Shown here: positions 3,060 to 30,455 of the stretch, piece after piece
Numbering within the stretch: position 1 is the stretch's first letter
Layout of the letters: each line of letters begins with the position of its first letter
Origin: Candidatus Parcubacteria bacterium
GTDB taxonomy: Bacteria > Patescibacteriota > Minisyncoccia > UBA6257 > 2-01-FULL-56-20
Assembly (NCBI GenBank): GCA_027449645.1
Contig: DAIDLF010000022.1
Coordinates: 1-49,454 of the forward strand
Direction of reading: 5' to 3'
Length of the DNA stretch: 49,454 nt
Program-made: the position numbers and the translations under genes
The notes under the pieces: model-generated
Databases searched by the model: none
What the model saw: the letters and a program-made list of their open reading frames with translations, nothing else
What the model was told of the DNA's origin: nothing

Positions 3060-4574
3060 ATGGCAGACGAGGCAAACGGAAAAACGGACGGCGGGAGCAA
3101 CCTGCGCTGGTGGGTGCTTTTCACGGTCATTTTTGGCACTTTCCTCGGGAGGCTTGACCAGACGGTGGTAAACCTTGCCCTGCCGAAGATCATCGGCGAT
3201 TTCAGCATCAGCGTATCCAGCGCGGCGTGGATCTCTACGGCGTATATCCTCGCGAATGCGGTCTTCGTGCCGGTTTGGGGCAAGCTCGGCGACACGGCGG
3301 GACGCAAGAAGATCTACCTGATCGGTTTCATCGGCTTTACGATCGCCTCGGGACTTTGCGCGCTCGCATGGAACCTGAGTTCCATGATCGTCTTCCGCAT
3401 CATCCAGGGGTTCGCGGTGTCCGCGGATTATCCTACGGCGATGGCGATCATCGCCATCACGTTCCGCGACATGAAGGAGCGCGCCCAGGCGCTCGGCATC
3501 TGGTCGGCGGCCTTCGCCGCCGCGTCGGTCTTCGGCCCGCTCATCGGCGGCCCGCTCATCGACAACTTCAACTGGCGCGCGGTGTTCTTCATCAACATTC
3601 CCCTTGGCGTCGTCGGACTCTTCCTCGCAATGGTCTTCATTGACGAATCGGTGGGTGAGAAAAAGAGCGTGAAGTTCGACTGGTGGGGCGCGGTATCCCT
3701 CGGCGCCGCACTCGGCTTCCTTACGCTCGTTTTGGACCAGGGACAGACATGGGGATGGACGTCCGGACCGAGCATCCTGTGCTATCTCGCGACCATCGTT
3801 TCCGCCGCATGGTTTTATTTCGTGGAGATCCGCGAGCCGGAGCCGATCGTGGACTTCAAATTCTTCAAAATCGGCATTTTCAACACCACCCTGCTCAATA
3901 ATTTCATCGTGTTCATGGCGCTCATCGGGGCGATCTTCCTCATCCCGATCTTCGCGGAGACCTTCCTCGGCTATAACGCCACGCAGACCGGCTATCTCTT
4001 CATCCCGCTCGCGATTGCCATGGTGATCGCGGCACCGCTCGGGGGAAGGCTTATTGGGAAAGTGAAGCCGAGCTACGTCATCTTCTGGAGCACGTTCGTC
4101 TGCGGCCTCGGCATCCTCATGCTCGGCGGCATTGATGCGCGCTGGACGGCCATGGATATCATCATTCCGATGTGCATTATGGCGTTCGGACTCGGCTTCG
4201 GCATGGCCCAGCGCACCAACCTGGTCGCGGTGGCCGTGCCACACGAGGAAATCGGCGAGGCCTCGGCCATCCTTGCGCTGGTGCGCAATATTTCGGGAGC
4301 GTTCGGAGTGGCGATCTTCAGCACCCTGCTCAACAATGCCACCAATGGCAACGTGTTCAAGGCCGTGTCGCACAGCGTGATCAACGTAGTGAACAATCCC
4401 CGGGTCACCCAGCAGTTTGTGGGCCTTATCGAGCTCAAGGCGCAGGTCGCGGGTTACGCGACGGTCTTTCAAGTGGCTGCCTGGATCGTCATCATTGGAT
4501 CATTCACTTCTTTCCTGATCAACGTACCGCGCGAGGCGGTCACTGCCGAACATCACGTGGTCGTCGAAGGATAG
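3060..4574 (+). CDS. MFS transporter, DHA2 (EmrB/QacA-like, about 14 TMS) drug:H+ antiporter
   Basis: 504 aa. Contains LDQTVVNLALPKI and GKLGDTAGRKKIYLIGF motifs with many TM segments. Lies in an operon with the two HlyD genes. Confidence 0.85.
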   Translation: MADEANGKTDGGSNLRWWVLFTVIFGTFLGRLDQTVVNLALPKIIGDFSISVSSAAWISTAYILANAVFVPVWGKLGDTAGRKKIYLIGFIGFTIASGLCALAWNLSSMIVFRIIQGFAVSADYPTAMAIIAITFRDMKERAQALGIWSAAFAAASVFGPLIGGPLIDNFNWRAVFFINIPLGVVGLFLAMVFIDESVGEKKSVKFDWWGAVSLGAALGFLTLVLDQGQTWGWTSGPSILCYLATIVSAAWFYFVEIREPEPIVDFKFFKIGIFNTTLLNNFIVFMALIGAIFLIPIFAETFLGYNATQTGYLFIPLAIAMVIAAPLGGRLIGKVKPSYVIFWSTFVCGLGILMLGGIDARWTAMDIIIPMCIMAFGLGFGMAQRTNLVAVAVPHEEIGEASAILALVRNISGAFGVAIFSTLLNNATNGNVFKAVSHSVINVVNNPRVTQQFVGLIELKAQVAGYATVFQVAAWIVIIGSFTSFLINVPREAVTAEHHVVVEG

Positions 4575-4590
4575 GCCGCCCTCCATCACC

Positions 4591-5703
4591 ATGCCAAAGA
4601 CATTCATAATTACCCTCGCGGTGTTCGAGGCATTGCTTATCCTGGTACACCTTGCCGTCTATGCCACGCTTTCGGCGGCGTTCGGCATCGGCGGAGTCTG
4701 GTGGGAAGCGCTTTTTGTCGCCCTCGCCTTCACCTTCGTTTCTGCAAGCGTCCTCGCGCGCTATTTCTCCCATCGCGCGGTCGCATGGTATTACGCATTC
4801 GCCGCCTATTGGTTCGGCCTGGTGCACTTTTTGTTCGGGGGCGGCGTCCTGTTCTTTGCGGCGATGGCGCTTTCTTATGCGTTCGGATGGTATCCGCCGC
4901 TTGCCCTGCTTGGCGCGGCGTGCTTCGGCGCGGCATTCCTGGTCCATAGTTATGCCACGTGGAATAGCGGTCGTGCAGAGATCACGAGGGTCGCGGTGCA
5001 TCTTCCCGGATTGCCGGCCGAGTGGCAGGGGAGGAAGATCGCGTTTGTGAGCGATGTGCACCTGGGGAATGTCCGCAGCGCGGCATTTGCCGCAAAGGTG
5101 GCCCGAAAGATCGCGGCCCTTGCGCCGTGGGCGCTCCTTATCGGCGGCGACCTCTATGACGGCACCCTGTGCAATGAGGAGGCGATGCTTGCGCCATGGC
5201 GGACGCTGATTCCGCAACTTCCCGGAGGAAGCTATTTTGTGACCGGCAACCACGAATATTATCTCCGGAACGGGGAAATCGGCCGGGCCATTGCCGCGAT
5301 CAAGGGCGTCGGTATCCGCGTACTGGACAATGAAGCGATTGACCTGGATGGCATCCAACTTGTGGGCGTGGACGACAAGAGCGTAGCGGAACAGGGATCC
5401 TTTCCGCGCGTGCTTGAAGGGATCCCGCGTGCCGCGGGCGCGCCGAGCATCCTGTTGCGGCACATACCTCTGGAGCTTGAGGTTCCGGCCAAAGAGGGCT
5501 TTTCCCTTGTCCTTTCGGGACACACCCATCAGGGCCAGATTTTTCCGCTCAATCTGCTTACCCGGCGGATCTATCGCGGCTATGATTACGGCCTGAAGCC
5601 GTACGGCGCGATGCAGGTATATACCTCGAGCGGCGTCGGTACGTGGGGGCCGCCGCTGCGGCTCGGGACAAAATCGGAGATCGTGCTGATCGAGTTCTCT
5701 TAG
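4591..5703 (+). CDS. Membrane-anchored metallophosphoesterase (calcineurin-like)
   Basis: 370 aa. About 4 N-terminal TM helices, then SDVHLG, GGDLYDG, GNHEYY and SGHTHQGQ phosphoesterase motifs. Confidence 0.8.
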   Translation: MPKTFIITLAVFEALLILVHLAVYATLSAAFGIGGVWWEALFVALAFTFVSASVLARYFSHRAVAWYYAFAAYWFGLVHFLFGGGVLFFAAMALSYAFGWYPPLALLGAACFGAAFLVHSYATWNSGRAEITRVAVHLPGLPAEWQGRKIAFVSDVHLGNVRSAAFAAKVARKIAALAPWALLIGGDLYDGTLCNEEAMLAPWRTLIPQLPGGSYFVTGNHEYYLRNGEIGRAIAAIKGVGIRVLDNEAIDLDGIQLVGVDDKSVAEQGSFPRVLEGIPRAAGAPSILLRHIPLELEVPAKEGFSLVLSGHTHQGQIFPLNLLTRRIYRGYDYGLKPYGAMQVYTSSGVGTWGPPLRLGTKSEIVLIEFS

Positions 5704-6947: not shown

Positions 6948-7589
6948 ATGAGCGGAGTCGAAATCACGCATAACCAACCATTATTTCATCACGCCATGCC
7001 CACGCGAAGAAAAGGCAAGCCGGAGGAGCCGGCAGAGGAGGAAGACACCCTTGAGGACCTTTTGGTGCTGCAGCTCAGGGAGATGTATGACGTAGCCACA
7101 GAAATCAAGAAAATGCTGCCAAAAATCATGAAAAAAATCGCTCATCCGGAATTGCAGGAGAGATGCGAGGCGCAGCGCGCAGCGGCCGAGGATCGCGCGC
7201 GGCAACTCGAAGGGATATTCCTGAAAATGGAGATCACGCCCCAAAAGTTTCCCTCTGCCGCGGTGCGGGGACTTGCCGAGGATGCCGAATGGACCGGCAA
7301 GAACCTTTCCGGGACTTCCGTGCGGGACGCGGGGCTTGCGGCCACGCTTAGGCTGGTCCAGCATTACGAGCTTATCCTTTACGTGGAGGCCTCATCGTGG
7401 GCAGAACGCCTTGAATTCGGCGAGGTCGCAGAAATCCTCAAGGAGGCTGCGCACGACATGGAAGAGGATATCCGTGCCTTTGCGGCATTTGCCGTCTCGC
7501 ACATTGACGATATTGCCGCAGGGGAGGATGACGGGGATGATGAGGATGAGGACGAGGATAATGAGCAACGCGACGAGGAGGAAAGTTGA
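6948..7589 (+). CDS. Ferritin-like DUF892 (YciE/YciF-type) protein with a poly-acidic C-terminal tail
   Basis: 213 aa. The sequence LLVLQLREMYDVATEIKKMLPKIMKKIAHPELQ... is typical of DUF892. The tail is GEDDGDDEDEDEDNEQRDEEE. The start is uncertain; an alternative ATG lies at 6996. Confidence 0.6.
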   Translation: MSGVEITHNQPLFHHAMPTRRKGKPEEPAEEEDTLEDLLVLQLREMYDVATEIKKMLPKIMKKIAHPELQERCEAQRAAAEDRARQLEGIFLKMEITPQKFPSAAVRGLAEDAEWTGKNLSGTSVRDAGLAATLRLVQHYELILYVEASSWAERLEFGEVAEILKEAAHDMEEDIRAFAAFAVSHIDDIAAGEDDGDDEDEDEDNEQRDEEES

Positions 7590-23591: not shown

Positions 23592-23659
23592 AATAAGAAA
23601 GGAGGATGCGCGCGCAGGCGTCGTTGATTTATCCTTTGATCGGAAAGGGGAAGACACCT

Positions 23660-25081
23660 ATGACGCAAGAGCAAGCTCTCAACATCCTCAAACTCGGCAA
23701 AAATGTTTTCCTTACCGGTGCGCCAGGCGCCGGAAAGACATATCTCCTTGCACAGTATATAGACTTTCTCCGATTGAACGATGTGAACCCCGCGATCACG
23801 GCCTACACGGGCATCGCGGCAAGCCATCTTAACGGGAAAACCCTCCATTCCTGGGCGGGGCTTCGGCCGGGCCCGCTTCGTGCGTTCGCGCAGGAGCGCG
23901 ACAGGGTGCGCAACAATCAGTTTTTGACCGCAAAGATTACACGGGCAAAGGTGCTCATCATTGATGAGATCTCCATGCTCAGCCCCGAACTTTTTGAACA
24001 GGTTGATTTCATCTGTAAAACTGCGCGGAACTCCATGGAACCTTTCGGAGGGTTGCAGCTCATATGCTCGGGCGATTTCTTCCAGATACCCCCGGTCAAC
24101 CAGGAAAACGGGCGGTTCGTACTCGATAGCGGGATATGGGAGGAGGCAAAAATGAAAATATGCTATCTCCATGAGCAGCACCGGCAAGGAGACCACAAAC
24201 TTCTCGGAATACTTGAGGAAATTCGGAGAGGGGATGTGGGCGCGGATGCCATTGCGCTCCTCAAAAGCAGGGTCGGGGCAAAAATCGATGCGCCGATCGG
24301 CGTCGCCCGGCTCTATACCCATAATGAAGACGTCGATGAGATCAACGAAAGGGAACTCCGCAAACTTACCGGCCCCGAGATCATCTATGAGGTGCATTCA
24401 ACCGGAGACGCCAAGGTCATCGAAAAGCTCAAAAAGGATTACCGGATAAAAAATATCAGCCTCAAAAAGGGCGCGCGGGTGATGTTCACCAGAAATAATG
24501 AGGGGATGGGCTATGTGAACGGGACCCTGGGAGAGATAGTTGATTTTGACGGGGACGGCGATCCCGTAGTGATGACCTTTGACCAGCAGAGGATCGCCGT
24601 GGCGCGAGAGCAATGGGATCTTGAGGACAACGGAGAAACAAAGGCGTCGGTTTGGCAGGTCCCCTTGAGGCTGGCATGGGCTATCACGGTCCATAAAAGC
24701 CAGGGCATGACGCTCGACGCTGCAGAGATAGAGCTTTCGCGCGCATTTGAAGAGGGCATGGGTTATGTGGCGCTTTCCCGGGTGAAACGATTGGAGAACC
24801 TATCCCTTATCGGATGGAATGATGTCGCGCTCAAGGTGAATGACCGCATCAAAAGGATCGATGATGAATTCCTGGAGCAATCAATTGAAACGGAGAATTA
24901 TTTGCACGGTCTTGGCGCCGAGCGCGTTGACCGTTTACAGAGGGAGTTTGTGGCGGCCATGAAAGAAGAAGGAGAGGCCCCAAAAGTGCAAGCCGGGGCA
25001 TTCCATTATGAACCGGACGAAGTTCCCGTCATTGATTTTGAGGGATACGGATCAATCAACGCCGAGGATATCCCTTTCTAG
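23660..25081 (+). CDS. PIF1/RecD-like SF1 DNA helicase
   Basis: Walker A is LTGAPGAGKTYLL and Walker B is LIIDEISML. Also contains GDFFQIPPV and HKSQGMTLD. The ATG at 23660 is preferred over the 23606 start in the ORF track. Confidence 0.8.
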   Translation: MTQEQALNILKLGKNVFLTGAPGAGKTYLLAQYIDFLRLNDVNPAITAYTGIAASHLNGKTLHSWAGLRPGPLRAFAQERDRVRNNQFLTAKITRAKVLIIDEISMLSPELFEQVDFICKTARNSMEPFGGLQLICSGDFFQIPPVNQENGRFVLDSGIWEEAKMKICYLHEQHRQGDHKLLGILEEIRRGDVGADAIALLKSRVGAKIDAPIGVARLYTHNEDVDEINERELRKLTGPEIIYEVHSTGDAKVIEKLKKDYRIKNISLKKGARVMFTRNNEGMGYVNGTLGEIVDFDGDGDPVVMTFDQQRIAVAREQWDLEDNGETKASVWQVPLRLAWAITVHKSQGMTLDAAEIELSRAFEEGMGYVALSRVKRLENLSLIGWNDVALKVNDRIKRIDDEFLEQSIETENYLHGLGAERVDRLQREFVAAMKEEGEAPKVQAGAFHYEPDEVPVIDFEGYGSINAEDIPF

Positions 25082-25142: not shown

Positions 25143-25622
25143 TCAAGAAGTGTAACGGACCGCAGTTTCCGTGTTTACGGCAGCCTGCACGGAGAGGATC
25201 TCGCGCGAGCACTTCATCATGCCCGCAACCCGAAGGTCTGTCTGCATGACACTCCTCGCGAGATCGAAAACGTGTTTTTCGAAGGCATGGAGCTGGCCCT
25301 TGGTCAGGCAATGCTTCAGTCTCGCATTGACCGAGTACTGATGGCTGCTCAACTGCTCCCCTCTAGTAATTTCAAGGGGGTTATTCATGCCATGGTCGCG
25401 CCAAGGGTGCTCTTCCTCTGCAATAGCAACATAGTTTGCTACTATTGCATCAAGGCGGCACTCCTCGATCTTTGTCCCCTCGCCAGTTCGCGAGTATAGT
25501 TGCGCCCGACGCTCGTAGGTGGCCACAGCCTCATTGGCCATGGTGATCACGAATGTCGCGCCCACGCAATAGCTCCGATTCTGTGGGGACACTCCGTATA
25601 TTAGTTCGTTTAGGGTCCTCAT
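25143..25622 (-). CDS. Hypothetical protein (159 aa), island-associated
   Basis: Strong SD (AAGGAGGG) 8 nt upstream of the ATG at 25622. GC looks intermediate by eye. No recognised domain. Confidence 0.6.
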   Translation of the reverse strand: MRTLNELIYGVSPQNRSYCVGATFVITMANEAVATYERRAQLYSRTGEGTKIEECRLDAIVANYVAIAEEEHPWRDHGMNNPLEITRGEQLSSHQYSVNARLKHCLTKGQLHAFEKHVFDLARSVMQTDLRVAGMMKCSREILSVQAAVNTETAVRYTS

Positions 25623-25707: not shown

Positions 25708-25737
25708 AGTGCTGGCCGGCTTGGACGATGTTCGAAC
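25708..25737 (-). repeat. Degenerate copy of the tRNA-Gln 3' end and trailer (candidate distal att remnant)
   Basis: AGTGCTG..CCGG..GGA..TTCGAAC here compares with AGTGCTGCCGGGCAGGGATTCGAAC at 30381-30405. About 22 positions match, with two indels, in the same orientation. Confidence 0.3.
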
Positions 25738-25757
25738 TGTATTGTGGTATAATACAG
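25737..25757 (+). promoter_or_regulatory. Extended -10 promoter (TGGTATAAT) embedded in a 7-bp inverted repeat
   Basis: TGGTATAAT at 25745-25753. CTGTATT at 25737-25743 pairs with AATACAG at 25751-25757. It lies upstream of the AT-rich + strand ORFs. Confidence 0.5.
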
Positions 25758-25871
25758 GCATAGGGGCTTTAGGTAGATTTTACATATAATCTATTGAAAA
25801 GTGGATATTATGCGCTTAAAAGATTGGCATTGTCTTCAAGTCGCGATGCTTGTAATCATTACCGTTGAGCG

Positions 25872-26093
25872 ATGAAAGAGAAGAATAAAAAATTTTGGCG
25901 GTTTATTTTGGGGGTTGGTGCAATATCTTTTTTAGATCAGATAATAGAAAATAAAGAGGAGGAAATCAAAGAATTAAGGGCGAAACTTGAAGAAGCTCGC
26001 GAAAAAAAAGAACCACAGTTTGGTACATATCTCTATGAAACCTATGGCATAGAAGATGAGAATGACCTAGATGCGTGGTTTAATGAAGAATAG
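25872..26093 (+). CDS. Small hypothetical protein with one TM helix and an acidic coiled-coil tail (73 aa)
   Basis: ATG start, AT-rich codons. Contains FWRFILGVGAISFL, then EEEIKELRAKLEEAREKK. Confidence 0.5.
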   Translation: MKEKNKKFWRFILGVGAISFLDQIIENKEEEIKELRAKLEEAREKKEPQFGTYLYETYGIEDENDLDAWFNEE

Positions 26094-26204
26094 TTTCGGT
26101 TCGATAGGTTGAAGTACAGACTGGTTTGGAGATGTCTAGTATTAAGGTTTAATAAAAATGCAACAAGGAACTTAGAATTATAATCAATTATAGATTAAAA
26201 AATT

Positions 26205-26453
26205 ATGATATTTACTGATTTTGTTGAAAGGCTACTTCAGTTAAATGTTGATCGCGACAAGATATTTCTATTGGAATCCTTTGCCGCCAAACACGCAGAA
26301 CAAACCTTTTTAAAGGATGGAGAGCCTAAGGAAACCACTGCTCAAATTAGCATGAGAATTGAATTTTCAAGGGGGAAAATTTTGAGCGAATTTGAAGAAA
26401 ATATTAAAAATGGAAAATCGGTAGAGTATTTAGTCGATTTGTTATTAAAATAG
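26205..26453 (+). CDS. Small hypothetical protein (82 aa)
   Basis: ATG start, same strand and composition as its neighbours. No recognised domain. Confidence 0.45.
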   Translation: MIFTDFVERLLQLNVDRDKIFLLESFAAKHAEQTFLKDGEPKETTAQISMRIEFSRGKILSEFEENIKNGKSVEYLVDLLLK

Positions 26454-26492
26454 TTTCCCATTTTTTGGATTGTTTCTAGGTTTATATAAGGT

Positions 26493-26972
26493 ATGAACGA
26501 CTATAAAGCTGTGATAAAATCAGGCATATTACCAATAGAAAGCAATCCCGAATTGTTAGTGGAATACGGCAGAGCTTTTGCGCGGATTAACACTCTTGAA
26601 TATTTACTCGAAGAGTTAATCATTGTTAAAGGGGGCTTGGGATCGGTCAAAAAAGATCTGAGGGAGAAGTTGGTTAATAAAAAAATGTTAGGTCAAAAAA
26701 TAGAGCTTGCAGCTACCTTGCTCGAGCCAACGCTTATAAGTAAGCTTCGGTCTTTAAATGATAAGCGAATTCTGTTAGCTCATAATGCCACGGCTCAAGA
26801 AATAAATAATTCTGGTGACGAACAGAAACCGGGAAATTATGTTATTGGGATAGGCGAGAAGCAAGAAATTTTAACAAATAAATTTTTATCAGATATCAGT
26901 AATCTAGCTCAAGAACTTTTAGTAGATTTCCACGCAGCCTTTCTAAAGGGAACCAAATTTGAACTAAAGTAA
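26493..26972 (+). CDS. Hypothetical all-alpha protein with an HEPN-like Rx4H motif (159 aa)
   Basis: LRSLNDKRILLAHNAT resembles the R-x4-H (R.K.AH-type) catalytic motif of HEPN/Abi RNases. The size and helical character also fit. Confidence 0.4.
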   Translation: MNDYKAVIKSGILPIESNPELLVEYGRAFARINTLEYLLEELIIVKGGLGSVKKDLREKLVNKKMLGQKIELAATLLEPTLISKLRSLNDKRILLAHNATAQEINNSGDEQKPGNYVIGIGEKQEILTNKFLSDISNLAQELLVDFHAAFLKGTKFELK

Positions 26973-27878
26973 TCAGGAATACCCCGCAAGCATCCGCTTA
27001 TACGTGAGTGCTGTTGAAACAAGCGCACTGTTTTCTAAAACGAGCAGGGCAACGAGTACATTCTCAGGCTTCACGCCGTGCATCGAACCGAGAAAGTAGC
27101 GAGATAAACTCGTAATGCCATAAGCAGTATCAAATGGATCGTAGGGGATCATATCTTCGTATTTTCCAGCATCAAGGTCTTTTGCGAGAAGTTTCAGGTC
27201 AAGTCGCTCGAAGGGTTCGCAGCCAAGCTTTGTTTTTATTGATTCACCAAAAGAAGGGAAGCCCCTTTTAATATATTGAAACATGAAGCTCCCGATGGTA
27301 TTAAGTTTTATCTTTTTTATTTTGCCTGTATTTGTAATAAGAACCTCATCGGAAAGGAAAGCGAGTGATCGTCCAAGATCGGTATCGGTCGCTTTCAGCT
27401 GTGCGAAGGTTATTACGCTTCCAACAAGCATACTACTCACAACGTCCATCGTGTTGCGTTTCATATATTTGAAGAATGCCTCCTTTGCTTCTCGAACATC
27501 CGAAGCGAGTTGGCGTTTCTTCTTCATTCTGAGGTCTTCCGCAACGCATTCAAGAGCAAGATCAAAATCTTCGTTGTTGTCAGCATGATCGATGATATAG
27601 TCGATCTGGAAATGAAGTATGTCCTTCATCATATTATTTAAGGCGTGTTCATTGTCGCCCTCGGGAATCCTAAGCTTACCCGCAAGCCGTGAGAAGCTTT
27701 TTTCAAGATTTTCCCTCGATATGCGCTTTTCTTGATCGTCTTTGCAGCGTCCTTTTTGATATTCGGAACAGATATAATAAGCCCCGCTCTTGGTGAGGGT
27801 ATGGCCTGAAACGGCAAATTTAAGCACGCCTTTAGGAAAATAGGAGGGTGCTTTGGGGGTGAAGGCTGATCGAGGCAT
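26973..27878 (-). CDS. Hypothetical protein whose N-terminus resembles the zinc-ribbon/coiled-coil segment of a large serine recombinase (possible remnant or fusion)
   Basis: FPKGVLKFAVSGHTLTKSGAYYICSEYQKGRCKD....LAGKLRIPE here compares with FPLRGFMTCDVCGCMLTATLQKGKYVYYYCTNGKKICDQ....LFGQLRIDE in the 28927-30432 product. The first Cys pair is lost here. Confidence 0.45.
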   Translation of the reverse strand: MPRSAFTPKAPSYFPKGVLKFAVSGHTLTKSGAYYICSEYQKGRCKDDQEKRISRENLEKSFSRLAGKLRIPEGDNEHALNNMMKDILHFQIDYIIDHADNNEDFDLALECVAEDLRMKKKRQLASDVREAKEAFFKYMKRNTMDVVSSMLVGSVITFAQLKATDTDLGRSLAFLSDEVLITNTGKIKKIKLNTIGSFMFQYIKRGFPSFGESIKTKLGCEPFERLDLKLLAKDLDAGKYEDMIPYDPFDTAYGITSLSRYFLGSMHGVKPENVLVALLVLENSALVSTALTYKRMLAGYS

Positions 27879-27966
27879 AGAGTTACACGCCCTTTATACC
27901 TCAAAATCCTCATTTTTACACGTTCGCTCATCCACTACCGACAAACCGCCCCCGTTGTAGGTAGTG

Positions 27967-28176
27967 ATGCCCAATTTTAGCCAAGAACTCATATCCGAGG
28001 TGATCGCCTATTTTGGCGAGCGGGAGGACCGCCTTATAGTCCCCGAAGAAGCGGAGGCGTATTTGGCATCCTTAGCCGAGCTGTATTGGTGCTTCACGGA
28101 GTCGATGAGGCGCAGGGAGTTGGGCAGGAGGGCCGATCCGCCGCAGGCGGGCGGCCCAAACCTTCCCCTGACTTGA
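27967..28176 (+). CDS. Small hypothetical protein upstream of Rep (69 aa)
   Basis: ATG at 27967; the ORF track starts it at a GTG at 27964. Its stop TGA at 28174-28176 lies inside the putative nick-site motif. Confidence 0.35.
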   Translation: MPNFSQELISEVIAYFGEREDRLIVPEEAEAYLASLAELYWCFTESMRRRELGRRADPPQAGGPNLPLT

Positions 28177-28197
28177 TATCCCCACATAGTTGTAATC
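28168..28197 (+). other. Candidate rolling-circle origin or nick site (phiX174-like ACTTGATAT core)
   Basis: CTGACTTGATATCCCCACATAGTTGTAAT lies immediately 5' of the Rep ATG. As I recall it, the phiX174 origin is CAACTTGATATTAATAACACTATAG. Confidence 0.4.
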
Positions 28198-28198
28198 C

Positions 28199-28930
28199 AT
28201 GGGAATTCATTTTAGAAAATATGGCAAAGTCATCGAGATCACGGAAATCGAGCACGAGCCGTCCAAAGTACGCGTATATGCTCCGCGAATCCGCCCTGAT
28301 GTTCACGGGTCTCGGCGATCAGATAGTATTCGAAGGACAAGGACAATATGTCTGTGGCGCGTGTTTGCTGGCGTTGAAGAATTTGGAAGCCCGCTCCTCG
28401 TTACTCTTACCTTCGACGGAGACGCCTCGGATGCCTCTTATGCAAACGATACCCTTCGCCGCTTCCAAGTGCGGTTGCGCGATCAATATCCTGAAGCCCA
28501 ATCCCTCTTTGTTCCCGAATTATCCCCACGAGGACGCATCCACTTTCATGGTTTGCTCTTTAACCTGCCAATGCATCTCGGCGATACGCGCCAGGGTAGA
28601 CGGATCGTGGAGCATGGCACGGAACGAAAAGACAGGATTATCGCCCAGCTTTGGGGCGAAGGTTTTGTGGATGTCCGAAAAACTGATGGTTCTCCAAGGT
28701 TGGGATATTATATCGCCAAGTACATCACAAAGGGGTCAGAGCAAACCCTCTTTAACGCCATGAGGATTCTTCGTATCTCTCGCGGATTCCCTCGGCAGAT
28801 TGAGATCAGTGGCCCCATGGCCGAGGAGCTTAAACGCCGTTACGACCCGAAAACACCAATCAAGGAGTGGGAGGGTAATAATATCTTCCTTGGCAAGATC
28901 AAACGGAAAACGTATATTCAAGACACATGA
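28199..28930 (+). CDS. HUH-superfamily rolling-circle replication initiator (phiX174 gpA / Microviridae VP4-like Rep)
   Basis: 243 aa. Motif 1 is LLVTLTF, motif 2 is RIHFHGLLF (HUH), and motif 3 is GYYIAKYITKG (YxxKY; compare phiX gpA FYVAKYVNK). Also contains LWGEGFVDV. Confidence 0.75.
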   Translation: MGIHFRKYGKVIEITEIEHEPSKVRVYAPRIRPDVHGSRRSDSIRRTRTICLWRVFAGVEEFGSPLLVTLTFDGDASDASYANDTLRRFQVRLRDQYPEAQSLFVPELSPRGRIHFHGLLFNLPMHLGDTRQGRRIVEHGTERKDRIIAQLWGEGFVDVRKTDGSPRLGYYIAKYITKGSEQTLFNAMRILRISRGFPRQIEISGPMAEELKRRYDPKTPIKEWEGNNIFLGKIKRKTYIQDT

Positions 28931-30432
28931 ACTATATTCTCTATTGCCGCAAATCGTCTGAGGCAGAAGATCGCCAAGTCCTTTCTCTTGATTCTCAAGA
29001 GACGGAGCTGAAGCGCCTCGCGGCGGCGGAAGGATATAAGATCATCGAGGTATATCGCGAATCCATGTCGGCAAAGGCTCCGAATCGGCCGCTCTTTGAT
29101 GGGATGATGAATCGGATCGAGAAAGGGGAGGCGCAAGGTGTACTTTGTTGGAAGCTCGATCGTCTCGCACGCAATCCCGTGGACGGCGGCAAGATAAGCT
29201 GGCTTCTTCAGCGCGGCGTGATCCAATCCATTCAAACTCATGACCGCGTGTATCGTCCTTCTGATAATGTCCTTATGATGGCCGTCGAGTTCGGTATGGC
29301 GAACCAATACGTTCTTGATCTAACCGCGAACGTGAAGCGCGGTAATCGGGCGAAGCTTGAAAAAGGTGGCTGGCCGAATATGGCCCCCTATGGATATTGG
29401 AATGATAAGAATGATAAATCGGTGAAAATCGTTTCCGAAAACGCGGCCGTGGTGCGCCGTGCTTTTGAACTGCACGCTACGGGCTTATACGATCTCCGCG
29501 AAACTGCGGATCGGCTCTACGAAGAAGGGCACCGCACACCGAGCGGCAAGCGGGTCGCCAAAAGCATGGTGCATAAAATCCTCCGTAATTCATTCTACTG
29601 TGGCATTATGCTCAAGGACGGCGCGTATTATGCGGGCAAGCACGAGCCGATCGTCTCAAAAGACCTTTTTGATAAGGCGAATGACGTGCTTGATGGAAAG
29701 AATCATTCGAAAGTCCAAAAACATTTCTTCCCACTCCGTGGCTTTATGACCTGCGATGTATGCGGCTGTATGCTCACCGCTACGCTCCAAAAGGGAAAAT
29801 ACGTATATTACTATTGCACGAACGGAAAAAAGATTTGTGATCAGCGCAAAAAACACCTTACTGCCAAGGATGCCGAAATTCTGATCGGCTCGCTTTTTGG
29901 CCAGTTACGGATCGACGAGCGCATTTTGGATATCGCTTTTAAGGCCTACGAGGAGAGGTTTAAATACGAGGAGGTTTCCGTGGAGGATCGCCGTCAAATC
30001 GTCCAAAATTCGATCTCTGCGCTTGAGGAGCGACAGAATCGCCTCGTGGATAGTTTTGTGGCGGGAATCACGCCTAGCGGCGTATATGAGCAAAAAATGA
30101 CCACCCTGAGGAACGAGAGGGTTGCGCTTCAAACTCAGCTTCAGCAGATCGGACAAGGGAATGATCCGTCAGAAATCACTTTCGAACAAATCAAAAACGT
30201 ATTTTTGACAGCAAATTCAATAGCTAATTCGTTCCTCGATGGATCGGATGAAGAAAAACGAGAGTATGCTCAAATTTTACTTTCGAACGTTTCGTTGAGA
30301 GATCAAAAAATCCAAAAATATCAGTTCAAACCCGTCTATCAGGCCATCGCAAATATACCAAAAAAAGACGATTTTGAGAGAGTGCTGCCGGGCAGGGATT
30401 CGAACCCCGATAGATGGATTCAGAGTCCATAG
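28927..30432 (+). CDS. Large serine recombinase (integrase-type)
   Basis: 501 aa. The catalytic N-terminus is ILYCRKSSEAEDRQ...LDRLARN. A recombinase domain follows, then a zinc ribbon (CDVCGC...YYYCTNGKKIC) and a coiled coil. An ATGA start/stop overlap couples it to Rep. The last 16 codons overlap tRNA-Gln. Confidence 0.85.
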   Translation: MNYILYCRKSSEAEDRQVLSLDSQETELKRLAAAEGYKIIEVYRESMSAKAPNRPLFDGMMNRIEKGEAQGVLCWKLDRLARNPVDGGKISWLLQRGVIQSIQTHDRVYRPSDNVLMMAVEFGMANQYVLDLTANVKRGNRAKLEKGGWPNMAPYGYWNDKNDKSVKIVSENAAVVRRAFELHATGLYDLRETADRLYEEGHRTPSGKRVAKSMVHKILRNSFYCGIMLKDGAYYAGKHEPIVSKDLFDKANDVLDGKNHSKVQKHFFPLRGFMTCDVCGCMLTATLQKGKYVYYYCTNGKKICDQRKKHLTAKDAEILIGSLFGQLRIDERILDIAFKAYEERFKYEEVSVEDRRQIVQNSISALEERQNRLVDSFVAGITPSGVYEQKMTTLRNERVALQTQLQQIGQGNDPSEITFEQIKNVFLTANSIANSFLDGSDEEKREYAQILLSNVSLRDQKIQKYQFKPVYQAIANIPKKDDFERVLPGRDSNPDRWIQSP

Positions 30433-30455
30433 TCCTACCATTAGACGACCCGGCA
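30385..30455 (-). tRNA. tRNA-Gln (anticodon CTG)
   Basis: Hand-folded 71-nt cloverleaf: TGCCGGG TC GTCT AATGGTA GGAC T ATGGA CTCTGAA TCCAT CTAT CGGGG TTCGAAT CCCTG CCCGGCA G. It has U1:A72 and G73 as in bacterial tRNA-Gln. CCA is not encoded. Confidence 0.9.

Follow-up and report, generated by a model that had tools for sequence, protein, structure and literature searches.

A conserved block of 28 nucleotides (nt) lies directly upstream of a predicted replication initiator gene (rep) on a contig of Candidatus Parcubacteria (DAIDLF010000022.1; "the window" below is the whole analyzed stretch of 49,454 nt). With a probability of roughly 0.8, we consider this block to serve as the double-strand (leading-strand) origin for an integrative plasmid of ~4.7 kb that replicates by rolling circle and resides in a tRNA-Gln gene. 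The features at the center of this assignment are the following:

28168 to 28195, + strand: origin block CTGACTTGATATCCCCACATAGTTGTAA, the proposed double-strand origin (Rep recognition and cut site), composed of a nick box GACTTGATA(T), a semi-variable spacer of 3-4 nt, and a second box C(T/A)CAYAGTTGTAA.
28175 to 28176, + strand: predicted Rep cleavage site ACTTG/ATAT (a slash marks the cut throughout), assigned from the identical phiX174 cut and the nick consensus of the pC194 family.
28199 to 28930, + strand: Rep of 243 amino acids (aa), a predicted HUH endonuclease and rolling-circle replication initiator with two catalytic tyrosines.

The origin of bacteriophage phiX174 is cut at CAACTTG/ATA, and the original prediction had located the 9-mer ACTTGATAT of this site at 28171-28179 of the window, where it is indeed present on the + strand as the only occurrence in the window. 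The motif had been placed just 5' of the Rep start, and 19 nt separate it from the ATG at 28199; the stop codon of a small upstream open reading frame (ORF) also falls inside it as described, with the TGA at 28174-28176 straddling the predicted cut. One detail needs correction, because the CACATAG box that was said to follow 5 nt past the 9-mer is found at 28183-28189 and the gap is 3 nt. The phiX174 origin core had been given correctly: it reads CAACTTGATATTAATAACACTATAGACCAC at positions 4299-4328 of HM753659.1, within gene A, and this 30-mer is present in 544 phage records. Taken by itself, the match in a single window is weak evidence, given that shuffled sequences contain 0.20 chance copies of ACTTGATAT per window; the test therefore has to be comparative, and it is this comparative test that is decisive.

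Scans provided 26 genome-derived loci and 57 loci on metagenome contigs, and look-ups of three close homologues added 7 more; the organism names of the genome-derived loci suggest that the hosts are Patescibacteria, also known as the candidate phyla radiation (CPR). The 9-mer was counted in 60 non-redundant loci in which 110 nt or more precede rep, and the expectation was derived from the rest of the same loci. The exact motif ACTTGATAT occurs within 110 nt upstream of a homologous rep in 43 of these 60 loci compared with 0.0007 expected per locus. A functionless coincidence, which could be entertained as long as the ~0.2 copies expected in a window of such size were the only yardstick, is refuted by this recurrence at the same place in independent loci and has a negligible probability. 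The shorter strings ACTTGATA and CTTGATA (28172-28178 in the window) were each found upstream of rep in 51 of the 60 loci, with expectations of 0.0026 and 0.011, respectively, and most of the remaining loci carry one-base variants such as ACTTGATTA.

When 53 non-redundant loci were anchored on the motif, the information profile rose to ~1-2 bits from position -2 to +25 and dropped to ~0.2 bits in the flanks. The result is a sharply bounded island of 28 nt with the consensus CTGACTTGATATCCCCTCAYAGTTGTAA, the core of which (GACTTGAT) is 98-100% invariant in the 53 relatives; its counterpart in the window, 28168-28195, is delimited almost exactly by the coordinates 28168-28197 proposed beforehand. 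The expectation that the motif would be conserved beside related Rep genes is thus borne out by a near-invariant island between unconserved flanks. Mean pairwise nucleotide identity amounts to 0.84 for the block, 0.30 for the flanks, and 0.80 for the best-conserved 93 nt of rep: identity in the flanks is at random level, and that of the block exceeds even the best-conserved stretch of rep. The same boundary is visible in BLASTN alignments, where homology of the window to its relatives starts at 28167-28170 in 3 of the 4 nearest ones and at 28138 in L019. The semi-variable spacer inside the block is TCCC, TTTA or ACCC across the family and CCC in the window.

A hairpin accompanies the block on its 5' side:

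28130 to 28157, + strand: G+C-rich hairpin GGGCCGATCCGCCGCAGGCGGGCGGCCC 5' of the nick box (centroid structure).

Relatives have a hairpin of different sequence in the same place, with a stem of at least 6 pairs in 48 of 54 loci, a stem end that is modally 2-4 nt before ACTTG, and loops that often read TTAA, TTTA or GAA. The mean z-score of the 70 nt upstream is -3.3 in these loci, and the hairpin of the window taken alone is not significant (z = -0.95). This variable, G+C-rich structure probably helps to present the nick site or acts on the single strand. A smaller hairpin within the block itself (ACTTGA/TCAyAGT, the slash here separating the two arms), which would have placed the cut in a stem, was rejected because variants break its pairs without compensation. 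One locus, L038, carries at ~400-450 an extra hairpin-forming insert of 29 nt (GTGTCTTGCCGTAGCCTTGGCGTAGGCAG) between CCTGAC and ACTTGATAT, so the distance from hairpin to box is evidently flexible. In the lineage of L044 and L045, the left half of the block and the hairpin are replaced, with a breakpoint exactly at G/A (…GGACATAG/ATATCCCCTCATAGTTGTAA, ~6950-6990) and an intact rep. As a single case, this is weak natural support for the cut position; the breakpoint could be the footprint of aberrant Rep-mediated joining, or the origin could be dead.

The motif can also be followed to initiators that are far more divergent than those of the family proper (Rep identities refer to the Rep of the window):

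L068-L071: Rep 45-47% identical; GACTTGATA(A/T)..CCACATAAC, 50-268 nt upstream of rep.
L085: Rep 31% identical; ACTTGATAATAGCCACATAA, 428 nt upstream of rep.
Microviridae sp. MG945510.1 (with VP1 and VP2): Rep 34% identical; G+C hairpin, 12 nt, then ACTTGATAAATGACACATAA, 35 nt before VP4.
pGTG5: Rep 27% identical; ACTTGATTATAG, 45 nt upstream of rep.
pHT926: Rep 27% identical; ACTTGATTATAG, 86 nt upstream of rep.

Conservation of the motif therefore extends to Reps of 45-47% and 31% identity, to one microvirus, and to two plasmids of Bacillota. Both pHT926 and the microvirus have an ACTTGAT-type box together with a CAC-ATA-like box upstream of Rep, and pGTG5 has the ACTTGAT box only. A bipartite signature, ACTTGAT(A/T) followed after 3-6 nt by a CAY-ATA-like box, hence recurs over very divergent initiators. 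The closest match in architecture is the gokushovirus-like MG945510.1, with a G+C hairpin, 12 nt, ACTTGATA, 4 nt, CACATAA, and rep 35 nt downstream, but this is a true virus with VP1 and VP2, whereas the element in the window has no virion genes. Two tiny cryptic plasmids, pGTG5 of Geobacillus (1.5 kb) and pHT926 of Brevibacillus (1.8 kb), encode Reps that align over ~75% of the window Rep and have its YxxxY and HxH motifs; these replicons differ in lacking an integrase, in not being integrated, in belonging to Bacillota, and in the third-last base of the box (ATT instead of ATA). In a separate case, L092 (Dulem virus 219), a long non-coding region holds two copies (3512 and 3992) of CTTGATAT followed by …ACAA(T/A)TGTAATTTA; these repeats recall the CPR block (ACTTGATAT…CAATTGTAA) and could be the origin of L092.

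For the protein encoded next to the block, the earlier description of a gpA-like Rep downstream of the motif proved correct, as it is a gpA-type HUH initiator with both tyrosines. It contains the motifs LVTLTF, RIHFHGL, and YYIAKYITK (with Y171 and Y175) and matches Pfam family PF23343 (REP_ORF2-G2P) over residues 66-179 with 52.2 bits compared with a gathering cut-off of 27.8; a weak Pfam match to Phage_GPA and matches to two PHROG families of rolling-circle initiators were also obtained. Nearly all of its 268 homologues are 240-250 aa long and share 60-77% identity with it; those with an organism name stem from genomes of Patescibacteria/CPR, and the PF23343 domain is present in all 120 homologues listed. 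Invariant in the alignments are H115, H117, Y171, K174, and Y175, which belong to the three HUH-initiator motifs. BLASTP aligns Rep with phiX174 gpA (E = 5e-6) across the HUH and YxxKY motifs, pairing GRIHFHG with GRLHFHA and LGYYIAKYITKGS with VGFYVAKYVNKKS; H115 and H117 fall on H263 and H265 of gpA, and Y171 and Y175 correspond to its two tyrosines Y343 and Y347. An AlphaFold model of Rep reached a predicted local distance difference test (pLDDT) score of 91.6 and matched ORF2/G2P proteins and microvirus initiators in BFVD with E-values from 8e-12 to 1e-6. Among solved structures, a sequence search with Rep gave no match and a fold search returned only weak HUH matches (Helitron, circovirus, and adeno-associated virus Rep) with E-values of at least 4e-3.

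Similarity to phiX174 is high in the nick box and low outside it. Compared with the phiX174 decamer CAACTTG/ATA, the window (TGACTTGATA) has 8 of 10 bases identical, and 9 contiguous bases around the cut, ACTTGATAT, are the same; both have a CAC-(T)ATAG box on the 3' side of the cut, and the strand predicted to be nicked is the coding strand, as in phiX174. The initiators share GR(I/L)HFH, G(Y/F)Y(I/V)AKY(I/V)xK, and both tyrosines in a YxxxY arrangement. The phiX174 key sequence CACTATAGACCAC, which follows an A+T-rich spacer at a fixed distance, is in contrast not matched in the block. gpA has 513 aa compared with 243 aa for Rep, and phiX174 carries virion genes, whereas Pfam and PHROG searches of the ORFs of the element gave no match to capsid or other virion proteins, so that it is not a microvirus; it integrates via a serine recombinase instead. 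The same cut-site sequence is known from plasmids, where CTTGATA is the nick consensus of pC194-family double-strand origins and lies upstream of rep (PMC10378824). The window has this consensus in this position, and in this respect it resembles the plasmid-type rolling-circle replication of pC194 and pUB110. The pC194 initiator RepA, however, uses one tyrosine and a glutamate (PMC5703833), whereas the window Rep has two tyrosines and is not a member of Rep_1 (PF01446), for which the Pfam search gave no match. That the phiX174 and pC194 groups are related in their initiators and nick sites has been documented (PMC3218068). Together, conservation, the type of Rep, and the match to the phiX174 origin support the initial proposal that the 9-mer marks a double-strand origin.

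Three other explanations of the conserved block have to be weighed, the first of which concerns the ORF that ends in it:

27964 to 28176, + strand: small ORF of 70 aa, with homologous ORFs at the same position in 50 loci.

The ~50 N-terminal residues of its product are conserved (…FSQxLIxxxIxxFKEExGxxISxExAxEYLxSxAxLYL…) and its tail is hypervariable, running through the hairpin and ending inside the nick box; searches against Pfam, PHROG, and PADLOC gave no match, and the product could be a copy-control, excision or origin-accessory protein. The block might be conserved as the coding sequence of a C-terminal peptide of this ORF, PDLISPHSC, given that ~35 of the 50 homologues read through it in one frame as (P/S)DLI(S/T/Y)PH(S/N)C. 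Yet in 13 of the 50 loci, the window among them, the stop codon of the ORF falls within the nick box or ahead of it, in most cases in one of the other two frames; 10 of these early stops use one of the two TGA codons of the box (-1 or +4), and one is 45 nt upstream. In the PDLISPHSC frame, codon positions 1, 2, and 3 carry 1.59, 1.61, and 1.47 bits, so that synonymous third positions are nearly invariant, compared with 1.03 bits at third positions of the Rep HUH core. Moreover, the ORF segment between the conserved domain and the block is hypervariable. The conserved third positions, the early stops in other frames, and this hypervariable segment indicate that the constraint acts on DNA, and the motif recurs upstream of Rep in the distant replicons pGTG5, pHT926, and MG945510.1. 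We therefore regard conservation of a peptide as very improbable.

The block could alternatively serve as a promoter, operator or leader for rep expression and be conserved for transcription or translation signals and not for cutting. It adjoins rep on the upstream side in every locus, TTGATA resembles a -35 hexamer as read from the sequence, and an overlap of the two functions would be plausible given that the pUB110 initiator silences its own promoter when bound at the origin (PMC5703833). A scan for sigma-70 promoters and intrinsic terminators called neither at the block, however, and the sole -10-like hexamer is 12-14 nt from TTGATA and thus too close. The distance between block and ATG varies from ~3 to 45 nt and reaches 268-428 nt in the distant relatives, and two nick sites that are known from experiments for homologous initiators have the same sequence as the conserved core. 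A mainly regulatory role is therefore quite unlikely. An Rfam scan placed no family at the block, with the tRNA as the one match.

The proposed origin is part of an integrated plasmid-like element of ~4.7 kb (~25708-30387) at the 3' end of tRNA-Gln, which stands out as a low-G+C island from ~25.7 to 30.4 kb of the window and in which cargo ORFs, small ORF, hairpin, origin block, rep, and int follow each other in this order:

25708 to 25737, + strand: attL, the probable left end of the element, with AGTGCTG (the same as at 30381-30387) followed by a conserved arm GGCCGGCTTGGACGATGTTCGAAC.
25738 to 27963: cargo ORFs at 25872-26093, 26205-26453, and 26493-26972 (+ strand) and at 26973-27878 (- strand); G+C content 0.35-0.47 compared with ~0.59 elsewhere.
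28927 to 30432, + strand: large serine recombinase (integrase) with Resolvase, Recombinase, and Zn_ribbon_recom domains; PHROG_95 integrase, 6e-81.
30381 to 30387: shared AGTGCTG of the attR junction at the tRNA-Gln 3' end.
30384 to 30455, - strand: tRNA-Gln(CTG), the integration target (ARAGORN; Rfam, 61 bits).

Of the 26 genome-derived loci, 25 have the serine recombinase gene after rep, and the remaining one (L026) breaks off inside rep. The relatives have a convergent tRNA gene (Gln, Leu, Trp, Lys, Gly or Ser) that overlaps with the integrase 3' end, and the right end of the element is at the tRNA in 18 loci. At the other end, the left arm, (tRNA-acceptor-like bases)+TCTGGGACGATGTTGGAAC, is found on the + strand upstream of Rep in nearly all loci and coincides in the window with the drop in G+C content. 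A direct repeat of 9-14 nt that spans the element/tRNA junction recurs 2-6.6 kb upstream of the block in 7 loci. Contig L011 (CBFGYC010000050.1; 5,751 bp) has a terminal overlap of 55 nt and no tRNA and is thus a circle: its left arm (5094-5122) is 18 nt past the end of the integrase gene, while the same segments are 4.5 and 6.1 kb apart in the integrated relatives L051 and L024, which is the relation expected between attP and attL/attR. With its own recombinase, att ends, and integrated as well as circular forms in the family, the element qualifies as integrative, and both rep and int are intact in the window.

The cargo ORFs of the window gave no family matches in Pfam, PHROG, and PADLOC searches, and one of them, of 301 aa, has homologues at the same position in L002 and L007. 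The circular L011 carries no capsid genes but a Shedu SduA defense gene (1159-2373, - strand; PADLOC 1e-30, Pfam SduA_C 3e-29), so that these small elements can move anti-phage genes among CPR bacteria. A search of viral contigs in IMG/VR yielded no relatives.

Two other delimitations of the element were rejected. No long repeat of the tRNA 3' half is present at the left end of the island, and the two ends share 7 nt plus the arm. An inverted repeat of 18 nt (27900-27917 and 30361-30378), which would have bounded an element of 2.5 kb, has no equivalent pair in 17 other loci; it would also leave out the conserved 301-aa cargo ORF on its left, and the true left arm is at 25708-25737. The left-end arm resembles the T-arm/acceptor part of a tRNA, which may explain how related serine integrases target many tRNA genes. 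Several loci contain 2-4 equally oriented arm copies upstream of a single Rep/integrase pair, namely L009 (3542, 9286, 10000, 13500), L010 (719, 2458, 3773, 4197), L019 (317, 1118, 2010, 2599), L020 (1125, 1929, 4964), and L042 (1972, 3876), and L019 has a tRNA-Leu 3' remnant at ~2430-2465 within the series; these repeated arms may be traces left by successive integrations or by elements that have decayed. The conserved part of the integrase ends near 30380 and its frame extends over 49 nt of the tRNA-Gln gene, so that the last 16 residues (VLPGRDSNPDRWIQSP) are tRNA-encoded when the element is integrated; most relatives show such an overlap, and in the circular form the last residues would differ. 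Immediately to the left of the element are a PIF1/RecD-like helicase gene (23606-25081, + strand; Pfam PIF1, 1e-30) and an unannotated ORF of 159 aa (25143-25622, - strand), both of intermediate G+C content; they may be host genes or part of an older island.

If the block is the origin of this element, a replication cycle can be envisaged. The serine recombinase would excise the element as a circle, as the circular relative L011 suggests, and Rep would recognize the bipartite block on the supercoiled circle and cut the + strand at ACTTG/ATAT, between G28175 and A28176, with Y171 or Y175 becoming linked to the 5' phosphate of A28176; for the cut and the linkage we lean on homology. Extension from the 3'-OH of G28175 by a host polymerase would then proceed through rep and int, displacing the + strand. 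By analogy with phiX174 gpA, the regenerated origin would be cut by the second tyrosine, the first linkage resolved, and a single-stranded circle released and later converted to duplex DNA. In phiX174, it is the second tyrosine that ends the round at the regenerated site (PMC5714925).

Several points weigh against assigning the block as a double-strand origin. The window block has an A at position 14 where 98% of the relatives have a T, and with this A (CCCCACATAG) it matches the CCACATA form seen in the distant clade. The window hairpin stops 13 nt short of the box instead of the modal 2-4 nt. phiX174 fits the bipartite signature only loosely (ACTTGATAT-TAATAA-CACTATAG): in the window, the spacer is CCC and thus 3 nt shorter, CACATAG stands where phiX174 has CACTATAG, and the second box (CACATAGTTGTAA) shares only CAC..ATAG. 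The phiX174 origin is located inside gene A, whereas the block precedes rep and coincides in part with the end of another ORF. No consistent motif was seen at four more distant Rep loci of microviruses or inoviruses, so that the signature is widespread and not universal. A single-strand origin was not identified, and the block could have a role in rep transcription, which could coexist with origin function. Cleavage, the exact cut position, and replication, finally, are argued from homology only.

A further alternative accepts cutting by Rep and reads its purpose differently: the block would be an origin of transfer (oriT) and Rep a non-canonical relaxase, and the excised element would be mobilized as single-stranded DNA through the secretion or uptake machinery of the host, like an integrative mobilizable element (IME), and not be maintained as a replicating plasmid. 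A hairpin that is followed after ~7-9 nt by the nick would resemble the geometry of relaxase nic sites such as that of TrwC of plasmid R388. Streptococcal IMEs pair integrases with microvirus-like (PHA00330) initiators that have been read as relaxases (PMC5357655), and Patescibacteria widely encode monoderm-type type IV secretion systems (T4SSs) without recognizable relaxases (bioRxiv 10.1101/2025.01.22.634366). On the other hand, no coupling protein or transfer gene was seen in the window element, the cargo ORFs of which are unannotated, or among recurrent neighbors, the characterized proteins closest to Rep initiate replication in microviruses and in the tiny plasmids pGTG5 and pHT926, and a free circular form was assembled on its own. 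Rep itself could act as a relaxase, and roles in transfer and replication are not mutually exclusive; transfer in place of replication nevertheless appears unlikely to us. One speculative extension would be that Rep and its origin are the "missing" relaxase and oriT of Patescibacteria, with excised circles of 4-9 kb being nicked at ACTTG/ATAT and Rep-linked single strands exported by the chromosomally encoded, monoderm-type T4SS that lacks a relaxase. We give this idea a small chance; if true, these elements would rank among the main carriers of genes exchanged between CPR bacteria, defense genes like Shedu included, and would offer a ready-made vector backbone for them.

Integrated elements with rolling-circle initiators have precedents outside the CPR. 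pSAM2 (with RepSA) and other integrative and conjugative elements of actinomycetes (AICEs) integrate in tRNA genes, and pSAM2 replicates by rolling circle after excision (PMC3218068, PMC2440964). The elements described here resemble AICEs and the streptococcal PHA00330 IMEs in combining an integrase with a phiX174-like initiator (PMC3218068, PMC2440964, PMC5357655), but at 4-9 kb they are smaller, no transfer genes were seen in them, their cargo includes Shedu (L011), their serine integrase gene runs into the tRNA 3' end, and their hosts are Patescibacteria. A full-text literature search returned no description of this family in Patescibacteria. Integrated elements with phiX174-like initiators are thus already known, whereas the family of small, tRNA-integrating rolling-circle plasmids of Patescibacteria/CPR is previously undescribed.

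With these plasmids, the cut-site sequence of phiX174 and pC194 is now found in a fourth setting, the integrated plasmids of CPR bacteria, and some gokushovirus-like microviruses as well as tiny plasmids of Bacillota have it too. The analysis singles out one phosphodiester bond for biochemical testing, and it provides two simple signatures in DNA, the left-end arm and the origin block, by which such elements can be found and their borders fixed in CPR genomes. As a compact, self-contained module of origin, Rep, tRNA-targeting serine integrase, and recognizable att arms, the element is also a candidate shuttle or integration vector for a bacterial group with almost no genetic tools. The spread of the nick site across these settings points to one ancient pair of initiator and nick site that has been kept through very deep protein divergence.

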